IMG/VR virus record: IMGVR_UViG_2547132272_000021
Coordinates: 1-7,024 of that record
From: a virus
Lineage: Duplodnaviria > Heunggongvirae > Uroviricota > Caudoviricetes
Direction: 5' to 3' (one strand)
DNA: 7,024 bases
In this document: piece after piece, positions 1-7,024 of the stretch
Position numbering within the stretch: position 1 is the stretch's first letter
How the letters are laid out: every line of letters begins with the position of its first letter
Notes under the pieces: model-generated
Databases searched by the model: none
The model's input: the letters and a program-made list of their open reading frames with translations, nothing else
Told to the model about the DNA's origin: nothing
Position numbers and translations under genes: made by a program

Positions 1-82
1 CCATACCCACGGATTACGGGTGCTGGTCACTGCCCCTTCCAGCTTAAGCTCTCCGCTGAAATCCTCTCCCGGCGTGTTCCAG
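1..82 (-). pseudogene. Distal part of a host ORF interrupted by the insertion (exported-protein-like)
   Basis: The minus-strand frame is open from 82 to the window edge (...WNTPGEDFSGELKLEGAVTSTRNPWVW) and has no start codon of its own. It joins in frame to the 6981-7024 fragment once 83-6980 and one TCCAG copy are removed. Confidence 0.6.
78..82. repeat. Target-site duplication, left copy (TCCAG)
   Basis: TCCAG lies immediately outside the TG terminus at 83. An identical 5-mer lies immediately outside the CA terminus at 6980. The match does not extend on either side. A 5-bp duplication is the Mu transposition signature. Confidence 0.85.
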
Positions 83-87
83 TGTGA

Positions 88-109
88 TGGTTCATGATAA
101 ATACGAAAA
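88..109 (+). repeat. MuA-type transposase end-binding site, L1-like
   Basis: TGGTTCATGATAAATACGAAAA matches 18 of the 19 specified positions of TGNTTCAYTNNAARYRCGAAAR. It occupies nt 6-27 from the terminus, which is where I recall Mu L1 lying (TGTAT-TGATTCAC... in Mu, TGTGA-TGGTTCAT... here). Confidence 0.85.
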
Positions 110-215
110 GAATAATCCGGGATTAGGTTAGTAAAGACGGGAATAGATTGGAGTGAAAAATCTTTTGTATCAGCAGTTTGTTAGCGCAAAGATATGTGTT
201 GGTAAAGTTATCCCT

Positions 216-237
216 TCATTTCTGTGAAACACGAAAA
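216..237 (+). repeat. MuA-type end-binding site, L2-like (weaker first half)
   Basis: TCATTTCTGTGAAACACGAAAA matches the AARYRCGAAAR half perfectly, but the TTCAY half is degenerate, giving about 14 of 19 positions. It has the same orientation as L1. Confidence 0.6.
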
Positions 238-256
238 AATGAAAGGATTACGTGAT

Positions 257-278
257 TGTTTCACTAAAGAGGCGAAAA
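257..278 (+). repeat. MuA-type end-binding site, L3-like
   Basis: TGTTTCACTAAAGAGGCGAAAA matches 17 of 19 consensus positions and has the same orientation as L1. It starts 41 bp after the L2-like site, which resembles the L2-L3 spacing I recall for Mu attL. Confidence 0.75.
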
Positions 279-393
279 GATGGTTGATTGTATAAAGTCT
301 TCAAATATGTTCAAAACCGCTTCAATACTGCATTTGAAGCTGGTTTAAGGTGGGGCATAGGTGTCTGATAACAGAATTTACTATAAACTTTGT

Positions 394-403
394 TGATGCA
401 TCA
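394..403. promoter_or_regulatory. Perfect 10-bp palindrome TGATGCATCA (candidate operator)
   Basis: The sequence is self-complementary. It shares the TGCAT core with the 476-493 palindrome and with 505-509. Confidence 0.35.
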
Positions 404-426
404 TGAATTTAAATGTTTTTATTTAA

Positions 427-439
427 AATCAATGCGTTA
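427..439 (+). promoter_or_regulatory. IHF consensus match (WATCAANNNNTTR)
   Basis: AATCAATGCGTTA fits every specified position. It is preceded by an A/T-rich tract (405-426) and lies between the two TGCAT palindromes. Confidence 0.45.
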
Positions 440-475
440 GTGAATATTACATGATACATAGGTGTAAAGTAGCGC

Positions 476-493
476 ATTGCATATCTATGCAAT
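476..493. promoter_or_regulatory. Inverted repeat ATTGCATA-tc-TATGCAAT (candidate operator)
   Basis: It has 8-bp perfect arms and a 2-bp spacer. It lies about 25 bp upstream of the candidate promoter. Confidence 0.4.
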
Positions 494-516
494 ATGTGTC
501 GGATGTGCATAAACAC

Positions 517-545
517 TTGCCAACCAATTTTATTGTTGATAACTT
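517..545 (+). promoter_or_regulatory. Candidate sigma70 promoter of the immunity operon
   Basis: TTGCCA (517-522), a 17-bp spacer and TAACTT (540-545). Alternatives are TTGATA (536-541), 16 bp, GATAAA (558-563), or the TATAAA at 545-550. The choice between them is ambiguous. Confidence 0.35.
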
Positions 546-552
546 ATAAAAG

Positions 553-571
553 CACTCGATAAAGTCGAGTG
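553..571 (+). other. Stem-loop CACTCGA-taaag-TCGAGTG at or near the predicted 5' end of the immunity transcript
   Basis: It has a 7-bp perfect stem and a 5-nt loop, with no U-tract after it. It could be a 5' stabiliser hairpin or a palindromic operator overlapping the alternative -10. Confidence 0.3.
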
Positions 572-685
572 TCGGGCGTAGGAACCCGTGTAAGCACATG
601 GCGACACAAGACGCGCCAAGCGTCTTTTTTATTGTCGTAATATCAGCGCACCTGCATTCAGTGGCTTATGGTGCACCGTATCTAT

Positions 686-761
686 GGTGGCGCTGGTGGG
701 GCAGTCGAAAGGCTGGCCGGTTTCCTTGTGCGCCGGTATTCCTACCCCCGCCAGCGTCACC
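686..761 (+). ncRNA. P1 C4 / P4 CI-type immunity antisense RNA (about 76 nt)
   Basis: A 16-bp closing stem pairs 686-701 with 746-761 (14 Watson-Crick plus 2 G.U pairs). An inner hairpin pairs 717-720 with 733-736. Its 12-nt loop (721-732, TTTCCTTGTGCG) is complementary to 805-816 across the icd-like Shine-Dalgarno sequence. The single-stranded TTCCTAC (739-745) is complementary to GTAGGAA at 775-781 and 578-584. The size and position upstream of an Icd-like gene match the P1 C4 (77 nt) and P4 CI RNAs. Confidence 0.7.
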
Positions 762-774
762 GCCCCTTATGAGT

Positions 775-816
775 GTAGGAACTCAGGCGGTGACTCCTTA
801 AATTTGCACGAGGAGG
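775..816 (+). promoter_or_regulatory. Antisense-RNA target boxes (a2-like 775-781, b2-like 805-816) covering the icd-like RBS
   Basis: TGCACGAGGAGG (805-816) pairs with the RNA loop 721-732 through 8 Watson-Crick and 4 G.U pairs, and it contains the GAGGAGG SD (810-816). GTAGGAAC is repeated at 578-585, which is the a1-like copy. Confidence 0.6.
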
Positions 817-823
817 CTGCCAA

Positions 824-1021
824 ATGGCTACGACCCCAACCACTTTACGCTCTGAATTTACCTTTCATTTTCTGGCTGTTCGCCGTTCCGATCTGAACGA
901 CCGCCCACACCGCGAATCTATTAACGCACCTGATGAAGCAACTGCCCGTCGTATGCTGGCACGTGATTTTGTGTTGGTGTTTGCTGCCTGCATCCCTGCT
1001 AAAGGGGGTAAACATGAATAA
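824..1021 (+). CDS. icd: Host cell division inhibitor Icd-like protein (65 aa)
   Basis: The motif F.FLAVRRSDL..PH....A.DEA.ARRMLARDFVLVFAA is characteristic of Icd-like proteins of P1 and P4-type elements. A strong SD (GAGGAGG) lies 7 nt upstream of the ATG. Confidence 0.8.
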   Translation: MATTPTTLRSEFTFHFLAVRRSDLNDRPHRESINAPDEATARRMLARDFVLVFAACIPAKGGKHE

Positions 1022-1418
1022 TGTTGTCAAGTTTCCGGTGCGGAATAATAAAAAAGTTGCGAAATCGAGAGAAGATATTGCTGTAAATCTGTTTAAAGAT
1101 ATTGTTGCTGCTTTATCAAAACAGGCGCGTGACTATATTAATGATGGCGTTACCGGGATCAATGGATGCCTAGATGGTAATGGCGGATATGAAACCTTTC
1201 TATCCTCTTTGTTGCTTTATATTCGTGGCATTGACTCAAAAATTGGCCTGTTTAGTATGTCTCTTGATTCAATACATCCAATACTACATGATGCATGCAA
1301 TGACTTAACGAAAGTTATTTCCCTGACGGAGCGTTTTATTGAAAGTAGAGGCGTAATCGCAGAGGCGGCAAATGGAAAACTTACAGAAGAACAAACGCGG
1401 CAGACTTTCAAAAATTGA
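1014..1418 (+). CDS. Hypothetical protein (134 aa) in the ant/eps position of the immunity operon
   Basis: The ATG at 1014 is preceded by GGGGG (1004-1008) and overlaps the icd-like stop (ATGAATAA), which suggests translational coupling. I recognise no family for this protein. Confidence 0.6.
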   Translation: MNNVVKFPVRNNKKVAKSREDIAVNLFKDIVAALSKQARDYINDGVTGINGCLDGNGGYETFLSSLLLYIRGIDSKIGLFSMSLDSIHPILHDACNDLTKVISLTERFIESRGVIAEAANGKLTEEQTRQTFKN

Positions 1419-1734
1419 ATTGCTGCCTGAAAAGATAAAAAGGAAGCTTGATAAAATGCTTATCTCACGTAAGTATTCTCAGGCTGAAATTCTAAATATC
1501 ATAGATCAGGATATAGTAATAGCAGGGTGTTCAGAACTGGTCATATCCAAAACCGGATTGAACAGATATGCGATTAGTTTAATCAATGCTGTTTCGGTAG
1601 CCAAGAAGCATGGAGAAGTGTCTCGCCGTTATAAGCATGCCGAACTACACAGGAGACTTGATAAACTTGAATCAAAGATAGACAGATTAGGGACCAGACT
1701 TGAACGAGTGTTAGAGCTTCTCGAAAAACATTAA
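1372..1734 (+). CDS. Mu gp27 / DUF3486-like small-terminase-like DNA-binding protein (120 aa)
   Basis: The N-terminus KRGRLSKIELLPEKIKRKLDKML...SQAEIL...ISKTGLNRYA fits the R.SK+D.LP.E+R..+D..L......+..EI......+S+S.L.RY pattern of Mu-like gp27 proteins, followed by a coiled-coil C-terminus. An SD (GAGG) lies 6 nt upstream of the ATG. Confidence 0.6.
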   Translation: MENLQKNKRGRLSKIELLPEKIKRKLDKMLISRKYSQAEILNIIDQDIVIAGCSELVISKTGLNRYAISLINAVSVAKKHGEVSRRYKHAELHRRLDKLESKIDRLGTRLERVLELLEKH

Positions 1735-1741
1735 CTATCCC

Positions 1742-1767
1742 AAAGCCGCCCCGTGCGGCTTTTTTAT
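1742..1767 (+). terminator. Rho-independent terminator ending the immunity/terS-like operon
   Basis: AAAGCCGC-cccgt-GCGGCTTT gives an 8-bp stem that runs into a T6 tract, 8 nt after the stop codon. Confidence 0.85.
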
Positions 1768-1935
1768 TGTTTGGCACTCGCTGTACATATCAGCGCATAT
1801 TTCATGGAAAACGGTAAATCTATCTTCCCTAAAAATCCCGAGTAATCTCACAGCATCCAGAGCAAACGGAGATGGTTCTTTTTTGAAAAAATTATGTTTT
1901 ATCACAATCGGGGATAAACTTATTTTTGATTCCCA

Positions 1936-1970
1936 TATCCGCAATAATCGTTATCGTAACATTGCGGATA
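1936..1970. promoter_or_regulatory. 10-bp perfect inverted repeat TATCCGCAAT-N15-ATTGCGGATA (candidate regulator-binding dyad)
   Basis: It sits in the 287-bp non-coding gap (1768-2054) upstream of the Mor-like genes. It is interdigitated with CGTTATC (1949-1955) / GATAACG (1967-1973), and a tandem ATCGCGC-ATCGCGC lies at 1998-2011. Confidence 0.4.
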
Positions 1971-2054
1971 ACGTTAAGTTTGCTGCAAGCATTGGCTATC
2001 GCGCATCGCGCTCAAATGTACACAGGTATATGCAAAAGCTTAAGCGAGAAGATT

Positions 2055-2783
2055 ATGGCTAAACAAACCTTTAAAAATCTCATGTTAACGCCGCCACACA
2101 ATGATATTACAGCGATAAATAAATTCATTGTTTCTTCATGCTTTTCTCGTGATATCTGTGATGTTATGTCTTATATCGGTAAAATGGGATATGCATGTAA
2201 TTATAATGAAGTCAGTGAGCATGTGAAATTGATTGAAAAACAATTCCACGCAGTAAAACATGAACAGAGAGGCGAGTGTGAAATTGATGTTTTTTGTAAT
2301 GTCGCAGGCACCGCTCTCTTTAATGAATTTATATCTGTTTGCGGGAAACAGACGTTCTATCTTGATGCAATGAAATTTGAACCGGATTTTTTTAGTGGTG
2401 GCCCGGTTAAGCATATCCGCAAAACTGCTATTATCGCTTTATTGAGAAATGAAACAAAGATTCTTCCAGAAAGTGTGACCATGATTATGGGCGCTATTGA
2501 GGCGGCATTAAAAAAAATTGGAGTAGACCCACAAGAAGAAGTAAACAGCACGACAAAAATATTCATTGCAACAAAGGCATTTCTGGAAGTTGTAGGTGGA
2601 ATTCAGTTTTATTTACCTAAGGCCGACTCACTTAGTAGAATAATGAAAAAAGCAAATATATATGCAGATAGTTATGTTATGTCTCCTGCTGAACTAGCTA
2701 TTAAATATGGGGAGTCTGGTAAATCGATATACACAACAATAAAACATGTAGGAGCGGTTATTGGTAATCATGAGCAAAGTTAA
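2055..2783 (+). CDS. Mor/C-family transcriptional activator paralog with a roughly 130-aa N-terminal extension (242 aa; start uncertain, alternatively 2016)
   Basis: The C-terminal ~110 aa (LKKIGVDPQEE...VVGGIQFYLPKADSLSRIMKKANIY...MSPAELAIKYGESGKSIYTTIKH) aligns with Mu Mor as I recall it (LSRLGVDPAHS...LGGGQVYIPRGQALDSLIRDLRIW...VSELTTRYGVTFNTVYKAIRR). Confidence 0.65.
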   Translation: MAKQTFKNLMLTPPHNDITAINKFIVSSCFSRDICDVMSYIGKMGYACNYNEVSEHVKLIEKQFHAVKHEQRGECEIDVFCNVAGTALFNEFISVCGKQTFYLDAMKFEPDFFSGGPVKHIRKTAIIALLRNETKILPESVTMIMGAIEAALKKIGVDPQEEVNSTTKIFIATKAFLEVVGGIQFYLPKADSLSRIMKKANIYADSYVMSPAELAIKYGESGKSIYTTIKHVGAVIGNHEQS

Positions 2784-3192
2784 CATAAATAATGCACACA
2801 TATTACAAACAGGTCTGAGCCTCGGTATTGATGTAATGAGAAGTAATCTTCCTGAAGAGTTAAAACTTGTAGAACGTGCAGTTATTGAATCATGTAATGA
2901 TATTGGCTTAAATCCAGAGCATGAAATTAATGGTTTATCATTTATTGGTCGGGTCATATTAAAAATAATGGAACTACAAACCGGATGTAGTTTCATACCT
3001 GAGTATGCGATTGATTCATCCAGAATTATTTTTATTTCTAAAGTTGCTGCATATGCAGAAAAATTTGGAGCAGATAAAGCAGCCAAAGCCTACTCCATTA
3101 CAGTAGATCAGGTTACGGAAATGATGAATGAAGCAAGTATGTTTGTTTCCCAATTTGATGATTTTGGTATAGACAAGGAGAAAAGCCACTGA
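2770..3192 (+). CDS. Second Mor/C-family activator paralog (140 aa)
   Basis: LPEELKLVERAVIESCNDIGLNPEHEIN parallels LPESVTMIMGAIEAALKKIGVDPQEEVN of the upstream protein. G-C-S-F-IPE corresponds to the GG.Q.YIP motif, and the C-terminal AKAYSITVDQVTEMM is HTH-like. The gene overlaps the upstream gene by 14 nt. Confidence 0.5.
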   Translation: MSKVNINNAHILQTGLSLGIDVMRSNLPEELKLVERAVIESCNDIGLNPEHEINGLSFIGRVILKIMELQTGCSFIPEYAIDSSRIIFISKVAAYAEKFGADKAAKAYSITVDQVTEMMNEASMFVSQFDDFGIDKEKSH

Positions 3193-3246
3193 AACACGCT
3201 GTGATGTTGTTTTGTCTTATCGGCGGTGTTCTGGGTGCCCTGCACC

Positions 3247-3290
3247 TTTTTGAAGGTGCTACGGTGTTTTTGAAGGGGTTTTGAAGGGGG
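3247..3290 (+). repeat. Three direct TTTTGAAGG(G) repeats in the gap upstream of the gpI-like gene (candidate activator-dependent late promoter region)
   Basis: The copies are TTTTTGAAGG at 3247-3256, TTTTTGAAGGGG at 3267-3278 and TTTTGAAGGGGG at 3279-3290, with a degenerate TTTTGCA at 3291. The first copy lies inside the hairpin GCACCTT-tttg-AAGGTGC (3242-3259). I could not find a convincing sigma70 -35/-10 pair. Confidence 0.4.
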
Positions 3291-3300
3291 TTTTGCATCC

Positions 3301-4140
3301 ATGACAGAGGAACTAATGAATATAATCGCTTTATGCACTGATTTATCGGGTGATAAGACTCCTCCGGAATGGGTTGAGTTACTGCCAGCAGGACCGGAAA
3401 TTGAAGGGCGTGACGGAAGGAGCTGGACACTTAAAGATCCACAAAGCATTAAACAGGCGTTTTCGTGTCGCGGAATGTCACTTGTGGTCGATTATGAACA
3501 CTCTACAGAAGTGATTGCACCAAAAGGTGGCGAGGCTCCTGCCGCCGGATGGATTAATGACGTTGCTGTCCGTAATGATGGTTCTGTATGGGGAAGAGTT
3601 GAATGGACTCCACGGGCAATGAATTCCATTACATCCCGTGAATACCGATACCTTTCACCAGCGTTCCGTCATTCTCAGGATGGTGAAATACTGGAACTCG
3701 TTAGCGTGGCGTTAACGAATAAACCAAATCTGAAACTTACTGCGCTGAATACTCAGCAGACACTTAGCAAAATCGCACTGGCACTTAATATGGAGGAAGT
3801 TAATTCACTTGAAGAAGTGCTGACAGCGTTAAATAAAAGACAAGCTGAACAACATAGTCAGATTGTAAATGAATATATCGAAAAAGCTGTTTTCTGTCCG
3901 GCCCAGCGGAATATTCTTCTGTCCATGTGTTCAAGTGTTGGAGAAAATGCATTCAGGAAGTTTGCTGATATGCAGGAAAAATCGACGAGTAATTTTTTAC
4001 ACTTTGCTAGGCCTGTAAGTGTAAAAGGTAAAGAACCCCCGAGAACGCTTACTGAATCGCAACTGGCTGTTTGCCGCATTACAGGTGTAAGCGAAGAAGA
4101 CTATTTGATAGCTTTAGGAAAAGAAAATGAAAGATATTAA
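3301..4140 (+). CDS. Mu gpI-like prohead protease / scaffold (279 aa)
   Basis: PEWVELLPAGPEIEGRDGRSW...DYEHS...AGWI...VEWT..A...I....YRYLSPAF... is the Mu-like prophage I protein signature. The C-terminal third is helical and charged, which is scaffold-like. Confidence 0.85.
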   Translation: MTEELMNIIALCTDLSGDKTPPEWVELLPAGPEIEGRDGRSWTLKDPQSIKQAFSCRGMSLVVDYEHSTEVIAPKGGEAPAAGWINDVAVRNDGSVWGRVEWTPRAMNSITSREYRYLSPAFRHSQDGEILELVSVALTNKPNLKLTALNTQQTLSKIALALNMEEVNSLEEVLTALNKRQAEQHSQIVNEYIEKAVFCPAQRNILLSMCSSVGENAFRKFADMQEKSTSNFLHFARPVSVKGKEPPRTLTESQLAVCRITGVSEEDYLIALGKENERY

Positions 4141-5023
4141 TTGTGTAATTGCTGATGCTACTATCGCTTTTAACGCCAAGTTTGAATCAGGAAAAAAAGC
4201 CTACAATCCTGTACATCCAACGATTGCTTCAGAAGTAACGTCTTCATCGGCAGTTAGTGCTTATGGCTTCCTCGAAGATTTCCCGGAAATCAAAGAGTGG
4301 TTAAACGACCGACAGTTAAAATCACTGTCAACCCGTGATTATTTTCTGAAAAATAAAACGTTTGAAAGCAGCATTCAAATTAAACGTGAGGATTTTGAAG
4401 ATAATGATTATGGTAAGTATTCAATGGTTTTTGAACAGTACGGGCGCAAAGCGGCTGCATTCCCTGATAAGTTACTGTTTGAAGCTATGAAGAAAGGGCA
4501 CTTATCAGAAGGAATTGATGGGCATAACTTCTTTGCTACTGACCATCCTAATGGTGAAGGCGTTTATTCAAACCTCTATGGAAGCAATCCAGCAAAAAAT
4601 GCAGATGCAACGCCGTTATGGTACTTATTTGATGGTAGTCAGGGATTGAAACCTTTTATTTATCAGGTTCGTCGTCCAATGGCTGTAACTTCTGTTACTG
4701 ATTCCGGCGCTACCGATGTGTTTCTGAATAATCGTTTTCTGTTTGGTGTTGATGGGCGTCTTAATGTTGGATATGCAATGTGGCAATGCGCAGCGGCATC
4801 ATGGGATACGCTGAATGAAACCACATTTAATGAAGTGTACGACGGGATGTTATCCGTTAAGGGAAGTAGCGGTGAACCATTGGGAATCGTGCCTACTGTT
4901 ATTGTAGTCCCCGTATCGTTAAGAGCCGCAGCGGAAAAATTGCTGTTACGTCAGTATCTGGATAACGGGGAAGACAATCCAAATTATAAACGCGTGGAAA
5001 TTATTGTTTCACCATTTATTTGA
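4127..5023 (+). CDS. Mu gpT-like major capsid protein (298 aa)
   Basis: It is colinear with Mu T as I recall it, over segments such as YGFLEDFPEIKEWLNDRQ, FESSIQIKREDFEDN, DGHNFFATDHP, LKPFIYQ, NVGYAMWQ, VVPVSLR and NGEDNPNY. An AGGA SD lies 7 nt upstream, and the gene overlaps the gpI-like gene by 14 nt. Confidence 0.9.
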   Translation: MKDINCVIADATIAFNAKFESGKKAYNPVHPTIASEVTSSSAVSAYGFLEDFPEIKEWLNDRQLKSLSTRDYFLKNKTFESSIQIKREDFEDNDYGKYSMVFEQYGRKAAAFPDKLLFEAMKKGHLSEGIDGHNFFATDHPNGEGVYSNLYGSNPAKNADATPLWYLFDGSQGLKPFIYQVRRPMAVTSVTDSGATDVFLNNRFLFGVDGRLNVGYAMWQCAAASWDTLNETTFNEVYDGMLSVKGSSGEPLGIVPTVIVVPVSLRAAAEKLLLRQYLDNGEDNPNYKRVEIIVSPFI

Positions 5024-5029
5024 TAATTC

Positions 5030-5054
5030 GGAGGGGATTTCCCCTCCTGTTTTT
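5030..5054 (+). terminator. Rho-independent terminator/attenuator directly after the capsid gene
   Basis: GGAGGGG-attt-CCCCTCC gives a 7-bp GC-rich stem followed by TGTTTTT, 6 nt after the capsid stop codon. Confidence 0.75.
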
Positions 5055-5066
5055 ATGGGGAATATA

Positions 5067-6854
5067 ATGAGTAATAAGTTAAGCACGGAAATACTGATAA
5101 ATCTTACGGGAAATCTTACCGCTAAAGCACGACAGTACGGCGCAAATATGTCGCAGTTCGCCCGTAACCATCAGAAGGCAATGCGACTGGTCAAGGCCAC
5201 AACTGAATCCGCCACGCGTGGCCTTGATATGCTGGGTAATCGTTACACAGCGATGATTGCAGGTTTTGCAGGTAGCGCCATGATGCGTGAGTTTGCACAG
5301 GTTGATCGCCGGATGACCCGTATTGGTATTGCCGCAGAAAAGACGCGCGACGAAATGGCACAGATGCTGAATGGTATTCAGGACACCGCCATCAAATTTA
5401 AGGTTGATGACAGTGAACTGATAAGCGCGGTGGAAAAAGTTGGCACAATAACAGGCGAGATTGAGTTTGGCATCAAGAATAAGGATGTTATGGCGGCCTC
5501 CATCGCGGCTTCAGGAAGTGAAGGCGAGTTCATTGGCTCGCTGTTTTCCCTGTTTACGAAGTTTGGCATTAAGAATGAAGACGACTCACTGAAGGCCATG
5601 GACACCCTGAACCTGCTGGGGAAGGAAGGTGCCTATGAATTGAAAGACTTTGCAGAAAAATCCACCCGCGGGATGTCGCTGTATGCCGCTGCAGGTGGAC
5701 GGGGCGTAAAGGGTGTCAAGGAGTTTGGTGTTGTAATGGAATCTGCTGTGGATGCCACCGGGAACCGTGATACAGCAGCCACAACGGTGGAAAATTTCAT
5801 AAAAGATTTGCAGAACCCGAAAGTCGTCAAAACGCTTAAGCATAATGGCATTAACGTATTCGATAGCGAAGGCCATATGCGTTCACTGCCCGTTCTTCTT
5901 CAGGAGATTGCCACCCGCTCGGGAAGCAAAGGCTCGGAAATACAATCCAAACGACTGGATGAAGCCGGATTTCTTGATGACGCAAAAATGTTAATCAAAT
6001 CGGTAACGTCCGGTAAAGGCGCAGAAAACCTGCAACGCTATATGAAAGTCGTCGGTGATGGAAAAGGCATCATGAAGGATGCCGCATATGCCGCACAGGA
6101 CTTTACGTCTTCCATGCAGGCGCTGGAAACCAGCTGGAAAAAATTCTCTCATAACCAACTGGCAAAACCTGTTCAGGAACTGGCTGATGCCATTAACAGT
6201 GTCGACCAGAACACTGTCCAGAACTGGCTACAGGTTGCCAAATACATGGCGATTGCTGTGGGCGGCATTATCGCCGTGCGTAAGACGTACAAGCTCGGTA
6301 AAACCATCCACGACATCATGAATCCCAAAGAGAAAGGCAAAGGGATACCCGGCAGTATTACGGATGTTTTCGGTTCTGGCGTGATGCCAGTGTATGTGGT
6401 CAATATGGGCAGCGGTGGGATGAATGGTAATACCAGTGGTTTGCCGGATGCGCCGGATTCATCACGCAATCCCCGTGGACCAAAGACGCCAACACTGGTT
6501 ACACCACAAACGGTATCAGGATTTAATCTCCTTGACATGGCGCTATCTGCTTTCCCCAAAAATAAAGAGGAAGCTGACGCGTTAATCGCACGGGTTCAGG
6601 AAAACAACAACCGCCCGACGGTATGGACGGATATTAAGAACTGGTTTAACTCTCTGGAGAAAAAGAACATCGCCGCTCCATCTCCGTGGGATGTCCTGCA
6701 ATCCACACAGAACGCGCCATTCGTACCACAGCAATTGCAGGGAGAAATCCGTGTGGTGGTGGAAGGTGATGCACGCGTGAAAAGCGTCAGAGTGGATCAA
6801 CCTGGCGTCAGACTTAGTGCTCAGGCAGGGGTTACCAGTGTAGAACAAAGTTAA
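5067..6854 (+). CDS. Tail tape-measure-like protein (TP901/PhageMin_Tail-type core; 595 aa)
   Basis: The central region (FAQVDRRMTRIGIAAEKTRDEM...AASIAASGSEGEFIGSLFSLFTKFGI...NLLGKEGAYELKDFA...GINVFDSEGHMRSLPVLLQEIA) looks like tape-measure core repeats. The C-terminal part has a hydrophobic segment (YMAIAVGGIIAV) and a Gly-rich stretch. I chose the ATG at 5067 because GGGGA lies 6 nt upstream, whereas the TTG at 5004 would overlap the capsid gene and the terminator. Confidence 0.7.
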   Translation: MSNKLSTEILINLTGNLTAKARQYGANMSQFARNHQKAMRLVKATTESATRGLDMLGNRYTAMIAGFAGSAMMREFAQVDRRMTRIGIAAEKTRDEMAQMLNGIQDTAIKFKVDDSELISAVEKVGTITGEIEFGIKNKDVMAASIAASGSEGEFIGSLFSLFTKFGIKNEDDSLKAMDTLNLLGKEGAYELKDFAEKSTRGMSLYAAAGGRGVKGVKEFGVVMESAVDATGNRDTAATTVENFIKDLQNPKVVKTLKHNGINVFDSEGHMRSLPVLLQEIATRSGSKGSEIQSKRLDEAGFLDDAKMLIKSVTSGKGAENLQRYMKVVGDGKGIMKDAAYAAQDFTSSMQALETSWKKFSHNQLAKPVQELADAINSVDQNTVQNWLQVAKYMAIAVGGIIAVRKTYKLGKTIHDIMNPKEKGKGIPGSITDVFGSGVMPVYVVNMGSGGMNGNTSGLPDAPDSSRNPRGPKTPTLVTPQTVSGFNLLDMALSAFPKNKEEADALIARVQENNNRPTVWTDIKNWFNSLEKKNIAAPSPWDVLQSTQNAPFVPQQLQGEIRVVVEGDARVKSVRVDQPGVRLSAQAGVTSVEQS

Positions 6855-6856
6855 AT

Positions 6857-6887
6857 ATATGCTGTATATCACAAAATAGCAGCATAT
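6857..6887. repeat. Inverted repeat ATATGCTG-N15-CAGCATAT after the last gene, containing a possible degenerate third MuA-type site
   Basis: It has 8-bp perfect arms. The loop and right arm (6865-6886, TATATCACAAAATAGCAGCATA) share TCACAAAA with the R1/R2-like sites but match only about 10 of 19 consensus positions. The orientation is opposite to R1/R2. Confidence 0.25.
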
Positions 6888-6931
6888 TAATTCAATGCGT
6901 CCGATTTTTTATTCGGTGGTGTTTTGTTTTT

Positions 6932-6953
6932 TTTTCGCGCTTTTTGTGAGATG
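6932..6953 (-). repeat. MuA-type end-binding site, R2-like
   Basis: The minus strand reads CATCTCACAAAAAGCGCGAAAA, about 15 of 19 consensus positions. It directly abuts the R1-like site in the same orientation. The two 22-mers are 20/22 identical. Confidence 0.75.
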
Positions 6954-6975
6954 CTTTCGCGCTTTTTGTGAAACG
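6954..6975 (-). repeat. MuA-type end-binding site, R1-like
   Basis: The minus strand reads CGTTTCACAAAAAGCGCGAAAG, 17 of 19 consensus positions. It occupies nt 6-27 from the CA terminus, exactly mirroring the L1-like site at the other end. Confidence 0.85.
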
Positions 6976-6980
6976 CCTCA

Positions 6981-6985
6981 TCCAG
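6981..6985. repeat. Target-site duplication, right copy (TCCAG)
   Basis: It is identical to 78-82 and directly abuts the CA-3' terminus. Confidence 0.85.
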
Positions 6986-7024
6986 GCCAGTACACAGGAA
7001 GGCAGGAGGCTGGCAGCAAACAGA
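6981..7024 (-). pseudogene. Proximal part of the interrupted host ORF (signal-peptide-like segment)
   Basis: The minus-strand frame reads LFAASLLPSCVLAW. In the present state it runs on into the element end (MRRFTKSAKASHKKREKKTKHHRIKNRTH) and stops at the TGA complementary to 6892-6894. In the reconstructed empty site it continues as NTPGEDFSGELKLEG... Confidence 0.6.

Follow-up and report, generated by a model that had tools for sequence, protein, structure and literature searches.

The question raised by this locus is what a pair of 22-bp repeats does at the right end of a viral contig (IMG/VR record IMGVR_UViG_2547132272_000021, positions 1-7,024), a 7,024-nt stretch that was analyzed as a whole and is referred to here as the window. 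The original prediction, made from the letters alone, had likened the repeats to the R1 and R2 sites in the right attachment end (attR) of phage Mu. Our analysis indicates that the segment 6932-6980 is very probably the functional attR of a 6,898-bp non-autonomous satellite of Mu type (83-6980), which would be moved in trans by the MuA transposase of a helper phage. The right end comprises the following features:

6932-6953, minus strand: R2, CATCTCACAAAAAGCGCGAAAA; 3 mismatches to the MuA consensus; nt 28-49 from the right terminus.
6954-6975, minus strand: R1, CGTTTCACAAAAAGCGCGAAAG; 1 mismatch to the MuA consensus; nt 6-27 from the right terminus.
6976-6980, no strand: right terminus CCTCA, with the CA at 6979-6980 as the predicted cleavage and joining end.
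6981-6985, no strand: right copy of the target-site duplication, TCCAG.

The 17-mer TTTCGCGCTTTTTGTGA has exactly two perfect matches in the window, at 6933-6949 and 6955-6971, with a period of 22. At up to three mismatches 0.06 matches are expected, and two matches were reached in 0 of 200 shuffles. Two adjacent 22-mers sharing 20 of 22 positions around a 17-bp perfect core had been predicted; both copies of the core were located, and the frames 6933-6954 and 6955-6976 are indeed identical at 20/22 positions. In the MuA register (6932-6953 vs 6954-6975) the identity is 19/22. Read from 6600-7024, the right end runs ...TTTTTTTTT CGCGCTTTTTGTGA GATGC TTTCGCGCTTTTTGTGA AACGCCTCA, then TCCAG; the element closes in ...GAAACGCCTCA, and the strand of the R1-R2 end reads ...TTTCGCGCTTTTTGTGAAACGCCTCA-3'. 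The two sites have the same orientation, head-to-tail and directly adjacent, and the outer one covers nt 6-27 from the terminus, starting at nt 6 as had been proposed. The two-copy array was not listed by Tandem Repeats Finder in a scan of the window.

The 22-bp MuA binding consensus, YGTTTCAYTNNAARYRCGAAAR, reportedly goes back to Craigie et al. in 1984. It was checked on two Mu-type prophages, whose own sites depart from it by 1-4 mismatches. Scanning the 7-kb window with this consensus at up to three mismatches gave only four matches, all at the two ends, where 0.04 are expected. In the alignment of element copies, R1 shows a single substitution (in the copy L001) and R2 is identical except at its last position, so that R1-R2 vary across three element variants by one substitution and an A or G at the end of R2. 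Just inside R1-R2, the spacer at 6890-6931 is the most variable stretch of the copy alignment. Because the sites are near-invariant while the adjoining spacer drifts, the pattern seen in the aligned copies indicates purifying selection on R1-R2. The two sites resemble each other closely (19/22), which holds neither for R1 and R2 of Mu-type prophages nor for those of the Yersinia-type relatives described below, and R1 of the satellite is nearer to the MuA consensus (1 mismatch) than that of the helper (4 mismatches). The near-identity of R1 and R2 could reflect a recent duplication or conversion, possibly giving a stronger competitor site.

The position of the repeats behind the last gene of the element allows another explanation, namely that they mainly serve something other than transposition, as the terminator or regulatory tail of the tape-measure operon, their likeness to MuA sites being a coincidence. 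The stretch in question is:

6857-6931, plus strand: variable spacer with an 8-bp-arm hairpin (6857-6887), a second weak hairpin and a T-run; possibly an operon terminator.

Hairpins and a T-run do lie immediately upstream of the repeats. The 8-bp arms (6857-6864 and 6880-6887) follow directly after the tape-measure stop codon (6852-6854), and the predicted run of nine T (6927-6935) is present, though it differs between copies. However, the repeats themselves contain no hairpin, and it is the hairpins and the T-run that vary while the repeats are conserved. A terminator pattern scan of the window detected no terminator-like site, and the consensus likeness, with 0.04 matches expected in the whole window, is matched by sites at the opposite end. 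On these comparisons a mainly regulatory role of the tandem repeat is disfavoured and appears exceedingly improbable. For the spacer itself, a role as operon terminator is possible: in the L002 clade, the only one with a convincing fold, a 13-bp AU-rich hairpin is followed by a U-tract in an operon-terminator-like arrangement, and the fold strength is z = -3.8 compared with z = -1.4 in the window.

The same hairpin had been suggested to contain an inverted third right-end site, R3. The arms of that suggestion are real; the R3 site is not supported and the hairpin is not conserved. No plus-strand MuA site with up to six mismatches was found at 6850-6931 in the consensus scan, and the weak inverted candidate keeps only a TCAC core. 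An inverted R3 at 6857-6887 was therefore rejected, given its more than six mismatches, the mutation of the TCAC core in the L002-L007 clade and of one hairpin arm in the L002 clade, and the unremarkable folding. A mini-Mu review describes R3 as genetically unimportant and dispensable, a stable synaptic complex requiring no more than L1, R1 and R2 (PMC3145075), so that the absence of R3 is compatible with function.

The opposite end of the element carries the corresponding parts:

78-82, no strand: left copy of the target-site duplication, TCCAG, identical to 6981-6985.
83-109, plus strand: left terminus and L1; TG at 83-84, L1 at 88-109, TGGTTCATGATAAATACGAAAA, nt 6-27 from the terminus, 2 mismatches to the consensus.
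216-237, plus strand: weak L2-like site with 5 mismatches to the consensus, its start 41 bp ahead of L3.
257-278, plus strand: L3, TGTTTCACTAAAGAGGCGAAAA; 2 mismatches to the MuA consensus.

The element thus extends from the TG at 83-84 to the CA at 6979-6980 over 6,898 bp, and the predicted junction of a CA terminus with a target-site duplication was recovered together with its left counterpart. L1 lies at the tip, in the same register as L1 of the helper prophages, and homology between copies begins at 83. Further inside, L3 occupies nt 175-196, compared with nt 151-172 for the second strong left-end site of the helper, and the L2-like site is invariant in eight aligned copies. Just inside L1 (window 110-135, nt 28-53 of the left end) are the motifs CCGGGATTAGG and ACGGGAATAG, which resemble CCGGGAGG, TCGGGAT and GGGATTAG of Mu-type left ends. 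The element shares GGGATT/CCGGGA motifs in this place with Mu-type left ends, and the GGGATT motif is also found in the relatives.

A megablast search of 5,426 complete E. coli genomes returned a full copy in eight genomes, with homology starting and stopping at 83 and 6980. The right end alone as query gave 13 places in the same eight genomes, so several of them carry two copies. Nine full copies and one truncated copy from complete genomes were read, and a copy in strain 47258 (H5) is known from megablast; with the copy in the window, 11 of the 14 indicated places were examined or seen as full copies. All 11 end at the same TG and CA, and the flanks, which are unrelated host genes, differ from copy to copy; conservation does not continue beyond 6980. 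The TG...CA termini are also present in the relatives L011, L018, L021 and L027. The host loci hit in E. coli include a LysR-family gene by ycaK, ABC-transporter genes, the flgH/flgI region, yiaK, ddp, an aldehyde dehydrogenase gene and a sugar-isomerase region.

Eight of the ten further full copies have their own perfect 5-bp duplication (GCCAG, TCCAC at two different sites, CTGAG, ACCGG, ATGGA, GCGCC and ATGTG), which makes nine of 11 with the window included, at nine different sites. The exceptions are L004 (strain 48956), whose left flank is that of the ATGTG site and whose right flank is that of the ACCGG site, and H5 in the sister strain 47258, whose placement is identical by megablast; both are explained as a single recombinant, of the kind expected from homologous recombination between two element copies in inverted orientation. 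Comparison of L004 with L006 and L024 (RIVM_C039629) implies an inversion of about 100 kb via two inverted copies. The window itself is part of the metagenome contig L017. When its flanks are joined with a single TCCAG, they match the E. coli faeH/F4-fimbrial region without interruption (988/988 nt, 97.4% identity), which places the repeats outside any conserved host gene. The copy in the window (flanks 1-82 and 6986-7024) interrupts an F4 (K88)-type fimbrial gene (faeH-like), a gene that is mostly plasmid-borne in E. coli. The bases Y-S-R occupy positions 2-4 in 8 of 10 flanks (binomial P = 2e-6). Y-S-R is the core of the CYSRG target preference of Mu, which is a property of MuA (PMC7350765), and both this type of preference and the 5-bp duplications were thus found for the element.

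The element does not supply the transposase itself. No DDE transposase, MuB-type ATPase or integrase was found in any open reading frame (ORF) with Pfam, PHROGs or NCBIfam, and no transposase is present in the RefSeq annotation of 10 copies. Portal, large terminase and tail genes were likewise not found in the element with Pfam and PHROGs, so that it has neither the MuA/MuB genes nor the complete virion gene set of an autonomous Mu-like virus. As there is no transposase gene, the element depends on a helper for movement.

A candidate helper is consistently present. A Mu-type A gene occurs in 88 of 5,426 complete E. coli genomes (1.6%), compared with 9/9 of those that bear the element (UMNF18, STEC388, RIVM_C036569, RIVM_C037166, RIVM_C039629, 54214, 48956, 47258 and 1424KP). 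These nine genomes represent three independent lineages, for which (88/5426)^3 = 4e-6. The functions missing from the element thus go together with a specific co-occurring prophage of Mu/D108 type. The prophage of RIVM_C037166 looks complete, with repressor, ner, A and B through com and mom, a duplication ACGAG, and recognizable L1, L3, R1, R2 and R3. With the A genes of D108 and Mu, that of this helper shares 96.4% and 97.8% identity, respectively. The right ends of the prophages in ETEC1732 and RIVM_C037166 read TGAAG-CGGCGCACGAAAAACGCGAAAA-CGTTTCACGATAAATGCGAAAA, followed by an inverted R3. In both, R1 covers nt 6-27 and R2 nt 28-49, identical in register to the element, so the claim that two adjacent sites in the same orientation represent the Mu attR arrangement holds for real prophage ends.

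Seventeen clonal genomes share a Mu prophage at the yehR junction, seven with the element and ten without. Within this clone the element occupies at least seven different sites, with one or two copies per genome. It follows that an element without a transposase moved during diversification of a clone with a fixed prophage, in a background that supplies MuA. A short-word BLAST comparison of the left 1.3 kb of the helper with the element gave only chance-level matches, and a helper enhancer or operator inside the element was rejected on this basis. Megablast of the whole window gave no match in the phage collection, protein-pattern and exact R1-R2 pattern scans found none among species-representative genomes, and a scan of IMG/VR for R1-R2 patterns of both site flavours found no helper with identical ends.

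Five-bp duplications and multiple 22-bp sites are not confined to Mu. Ends of Tn7 type start with TGT, contain several transposase sites of about 22 bp and generate 5-bp duplications, and the ends described here could in principle belong to such a family (Tn7-like, Tn552-like or Tn5053-like), served by an unlinked or unrecognized transposase. The TGT start, the site length and the duplication are alike. Yet no TnsA/B/C-, TniA/B- or p480-like gene was found in or next to the element, including a search for tnsA/B/C beside the right end. The sites are instead 1-3 mismatches from the MuA consensus in the exact Mu register, the flanks fit the Mu target preference, and MuA co-occurs in 9/9 genomes. 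We consider an origin from another such family very improbable.

Relatives of the Mu-type satellite were traced in other genera through homologues of its 140-aa (amino acid) orphan protein:

L011: Yersinia enterocolitica; duplication ACTAC.
L027: Citrobacter freundii; contig with an IncFII replication gene.
L018: metagenome; duplication GTTCT.
L021: metagenome.
L016: IMG/VR contig, 6691 bp.

Their proteins share 40-75% identity with those of the element. None has a transposase, and all keep the order Mor-like gene, orphan, protease, head, tape measure and right end. Every relative has a site with up to seven mismatches at nt 6-27 and at nt 28-49, against a background mean of 13.3 mismatches; a match this good is reached at just 0.35% of window positions. 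Both the 22-bp register and the distance to the CA, which the original prediction had singled out for comparison, are hence kept in the Citrobacter, Yersinia and metagenomic elements. Elements of the Yersinia type have ...AATGAGAAAA and CGAAAAATGAAAAA at L1, R2 and R1. Since this flavour changes jointly at the sites within an element, it suggests adaptation to a different helper transposase, as judged from the site sequences. The ends of the relatives L019, L020 and L029 could not be located. L020 is rearranged and contains insertion sequence (IS) elements, with a solitary inverted L1-like end upstream of the relative, at 2296-2321 (TGTATGGATTCAGGAATAATGAGAAA, minus strand) and about 700 bp from IS1.

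Given these sites, movement may be envisaged as follows. Two MuA monomers of the helper would bind R1 (6954-6975) and R2 (6932-6953), and at the left end L1, L3 and the weak L2 would be occupied by further monomers. The complex would nick after the terminal CA (6980, and the complement of the TG at 83), and the 3' ends would be joined to target phosphates 5 bp apart, which would yield the 5-bp duplication. The enhancer of the helper itself could act in trans, as for laboratory mini-Mu(LR). Indeed, mini-Mu with only the L and R ends transposes when MuA and MuB are supplied in trans, and the enhancer can act in trans (PMC3145075). During the lytic cycle of the helper, the element would be amplified by replicative transposition, for which the helper would be needed as well. 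The element is best read as a satellite of Mu-type phages and the natural counterpart of the laboratory mini-Mu.

Several points weigh against this reading. We infer recognition of the ends by MuA from the consensus, and likewise infer packaging into particles; movement would have to take place inside lysogens in which the prophage is repressed. R2 is off consensus at three positions, L2 is weak, the right end has no R3, and no similarity to the operator/enhancer region of the helper was found. R1 of the satellite differs from that of the helper at 7 of 22 positions, so that the cognate transposase could belong to a different Mu-like phage. The co-occurrence with MuA rests on just three independent lineages. 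Among the relatives, the Yersinia-type elements have TGAGAAA/TGAAAAA where the E. coli sites have CGAAA, and the IMG/VR scan found no helper for them; L021 and L027 have proper termini with non-matching 5-bp flanks.

The genes and RNAs of the element bear on whether it is alive and whether it forms particles. They are, from left to right:

552-630, plus strand: isrK-like RNA; Rfam 59.4 bits, above the gathering threshold.
680-767, plus strand: C4-type antisense RNA; Rfam 77.1 bits, above the gathering threshold.
824-1021, plus strand: Icd-like ORF, 65 aa; NCBIfam phage_ICD_like, E 3.5e-20; RefSeq agrees.
1014-1418: orphan, 134 aa.
1372-1734, plus strand: truncated gp27-like protein, 120 aa; Pfam Phage_Mu_Gp27, phrog_426.
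2055-2783, plus strand: Mor-family regulator, 242 aa; Pfam Mor in the C-terminal domain, with an N-terminal extension.
2770-3192, plus strand: orphan, 140 aa; adjoins the Mor-like gene.
3245-3295, no strand: phased repeats, TTTTTGAAGG, 10 nt, TTTTTGAAGGGG, TTTTGAAGGGGG; directly upstream of the protease gene.
3316-4140, plus strand: protease/scaffold, gpI-like; Pfam and PHROGs.
4127-5023, plus strand: major head protein, gpT-like; Pfam and PHROGs.
5067-6854, plus strand: tape measure; Pfam and PHROGs.

By sequence, the isrK-C4 pair with the Icd-like ORF downstream is an RNA immunity module of P1/P4 type, and the module is found at the same relative place in 3/3 tested relatives (L011, L016 and L018). 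The last three genes form a late-type operon on the plus strand (3316-6854). Compared with the helper, the gpT-like protein has 43% aa identity (298 vs 300 aa), the protease/scaffold 33% (274 vs 320 aa), the tape measure 47% (595 vs 618 aa) and the Mor domain 24% (242 vs 136 aa). The shortening of the protease/scaffold affects the stretch between its protease domain and C-terminal region. The gp27-like protein contains only the N-terminal part of the small-terminase-like protein of Mu, with 46% identity over the first 68 aa of the helper protein (120 vs 193 aa). With proteins only 24-47% identical to those of the resident prophage, the element is not, judging from these comparisons, a recent deletion derivative of it.

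This bears on the idea of a dead remnant: a Mu-like prophage that underwent internal deletion, in which R1 and R2 are no longer used and the ends survive by inertia. All its recognizable structural genes are of the Mu family and in roughly the Mu order (gp27, I, T, tape measure), and the STEC388 copy is truncated by IS1. That history, however, is difficult to reconcile with at least seven sites within one clone and two copies in several genomes, with intact 5-bp duplications at nine sites, and with R1/R2 that are conserved while the spacer drifts. The low identity to the resident prophage excludes a recent deletion, and the reduced gene set, together with the non-Mu isrK-C4-Icd module, is conserved in relatives at 40-75% identity with synteny kept, as a gene set distinct from that of the helper. 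We therefore regard a dead remnant as strongly disfavoured and improbable. The STEC388 copy (L008, locus 9983-10700) is 100% identical to window 83-5065; IS1 is inserted at the start of the tape-measure gene and the right end is lost.

A further question is whether the element also travels between cells in particles. In the satellite model, packaging would start from the left end, as suggested by the GGGATT/CCGGGA motifs and the gp27-like DNA-binding domain, and its own head protein and shortened scaffold may build a different shell. The packaging site of Mu presumably lies just inside L1. Alternatively, the element could be a hitchhiker mobilized by MuA, a large mini-Mu resembling a miniature inverted-repeat transposable element, that is not packaged; its structural genes would then serve another purpose, such as interference with or defence against Mu-like phages, and spread from cell to cell would be incidental. 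This would fit the lack of portal, large terminase and tail genes, a full-length tape measure (595 vs 618 aa) that is not obviously needed by a size-reducing satellite, the impossibility of integration after injection without a transposase, and the fact that the observed movement lies within a clone keeping its Mu prophage at one place. It fits less well with the presence of the gp27-like N-terminal domain and of the motifs inside L1, in the assumed location of the Mu packaging site. The head-protease pair has also been kept over deep divergence, an IMG/VR viral contig corresponds to the element from end to end, and members of the family occur in three genera, Escherichia, Citrobacter and Yersinia, a distribution that calls for movement from cell to cell. 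We consider an unpackaged hitchhiker possible, though rather unlikely.

Two contigs, L016 (6691 bp) and L032 (an isolate assembly contig of 6899 bp), contain the element from 1-2 nt before the TG to the CA. Assemblies broken at both termini imply several different flanks in those samples, and such end-to-end contigs show only this flank heterogeneity and are hints for packaging or transfer.

As a whole, the data incline us, by a small degree, towards a first natural family of satellites that hijack the transposase of a transposable phage. Its members would be elements of 6.4-6.9 kb in Enterobacterales without a transposase, with all the cis elements of Mu replicative transposition (attL, attR and a central site resembling the strong gyrase site), a P4-type RNA module and a Mor-like activator as their switch, and their own head shell and tape measure, to be amplified and spread by helpers of Mu/D108 type. 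No description of a satellite of a transposable phage, of a natural mini-Mu or of the repeat motif was found in the full-text literature searched, outside which most subscription journals lie.

Among known systems, the right end is most readily compared with that of Mu and D108, and by sequence it belongs to the Mu-type attR class, as a form without R3. It shares with them the terminal CA, R1 at nt 6-27 and R2 at nt 28-49, their orientation, the 22-bp consensus, the 5-bp duplication and the YSR target bias, and the left end shares L1 at nt 6-27 with further sites about 130-200 bp inside. It differs in having no inverted R3 and in that R1 and R2 are near-copies (19/22), whereas R1 and R2 of the helper differ much more. 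Unlike Mu and D108, the element encodes neither A nor B, and no enhancer or operator was recognized in it. Laboratory mini-Mu(LR) and Mud elements (PMC3145075) similarly have Mu ends without transposition genes, receive MuA and MuB from elsewhere and occur in multiple chromosomal copies. The element, in contrast, is natural and part of a conserved family, and besides an RNA immunity module it has head, protease, tape-measure and regulatory genes of its own.

As a small helper-dependent element with a C4/CI-type RNA switch, an Icd-like gene and a regulator of a late-activator family, it resembles the P4-like satellites. It lacks, however, their integrase, primase, Sid, Psu and Delta, has structural genes of the Mu family, and inserts at many sites via Mu-type ends instead of at a tRNA attachment site. 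Capsid-forming PICIs (cfPICI) encode their own major capsid protein and protease, and the element shares this, beyond mere remodelling of the helper capsid. It differs from them in having no portal/connector/terminase set, integrase or replication module, and in its mobility via a hijacked transposase. The right end of Tn7 has in common several transposase sites of about 22 bp and the 5-bp duplication; the element has no tns genes, another site consensus and no attTn7-type targeting. With no integrase, primase, portal or terminase set, the element falls outside the P4-like, cfPICI and mini-Mu families.

To our knowledge, the described satellite families (P4-like, PICI/cfPICI, PLE, PICMI) all carry the integrase with which they integrate, and in most of them replication starts from an origin of their own. 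Borrowing the transposase of a helper for both insertion and amplification would, if true, be a new satellite strategy, and would give the engineered mini-Mu, in use for decades, a counterpart in nature. It also provides natural variants of MuA sites, including an R1 nearer to the consensus than that of Mu, duplicated R1/R2, the absence of R3 and the Yersinia-type flavour. The element interrupts flagellar, fimbrial, transporter and metabolic loci and moves within a clinical E. coli clone. It also mediates an inversion between its copies, and thus generates genome variation without being marked as mobile in current annotation.

The center of the element resembles that of Mu in one further respect. 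The repeats at 3245-3295 read CTTTTTGAAGG, 10 nt, TTTTTGAAGGGG, TTTTGAAGGGGG, that is, phased TTTTGAAGGGG repeats, and Tandem Repeats Finder flagged 3268-3295. Alignment of 3206-3300 with the region upstream of the helper protease gene gave a score of 44, compared with a maximum of 18 in 300 shuffles. The repeat core is near-identical in element and helper, although the adjacent proteins are only 33% identical, and the motif occurs just once in each, at 0.45 and 0.47 of the respective length. The corresponding positions are L022:10368-10457 and, in Mu (AF083977), 17879-17950 (L026:1380-1450). In the same slot, between G and I, the record of phage Mu has an annotated gyrase cut site (17879/17880), followed by the phased repeats GATTTTTTAAAACG, 8 nt, GATTTTTAAACCGG, TATTTAACGG. 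The Yersinia-type relatives carry the TTTAAACGG flavour of Mu there (GTTAAACGG..., GATTTAAACGGG, TTTTAAACATGG). A distant search of the phage collection with the helper region upstream of gene I gave no match. Mu has a strong gyrase site near G and I, at its center, where the position is optimal, and the essential right arm of this site holds DNA-bending repeat motifs (PMC10052514). By analogy, 3245-3295 may be the right arm of a central element resembling the strong gyrase site; alternatively, it could be a regulatory site. Together with the natural variants of MuA sites, a 6.9-kb element that keeps such a motif in its center bears on how transpososome assembly and end synapsis are tuned.

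The remaining observations concern individual genes. RefSeq annotates an "ash family protein" ORF (642-896) that overlaps the C4 RNA and has no NCBIfam match at E <= 0.01; it is probably a mis-called ORF over the RNA gene. The Mor-like gene and the 140-aa orphan gene are a syntenic pair in all relatives, and for the orphan, a set of 1.84 billion proteins yielded only two representative clusters. Structure prediction of the Mor-like protein was unusable (predicted local distance difference test, pLDDT, 51). The orphan gave an all-helical model of moderate confidence (pLDDT 65.5), whose top PDB match was Mor of Mu (1rr7) at a non-significant E = 1.5, and a profile comparison with the helper Mor and its adjoining ORF (a possible C protein) was not significant. 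On the model, the orphan may be a second regulator of Mor/C type, unsupported as this is. Finally, the tape-measure gene (window 5082-6854) has 83-86% DNA identity to those of some Mu-type prophages, e.g., that of ETEC1732, compared with 47% protein identity to the co-resident RIVM prophage, which suggests that this gene has been exchanged by recombination with a subset of Mu-like phages.

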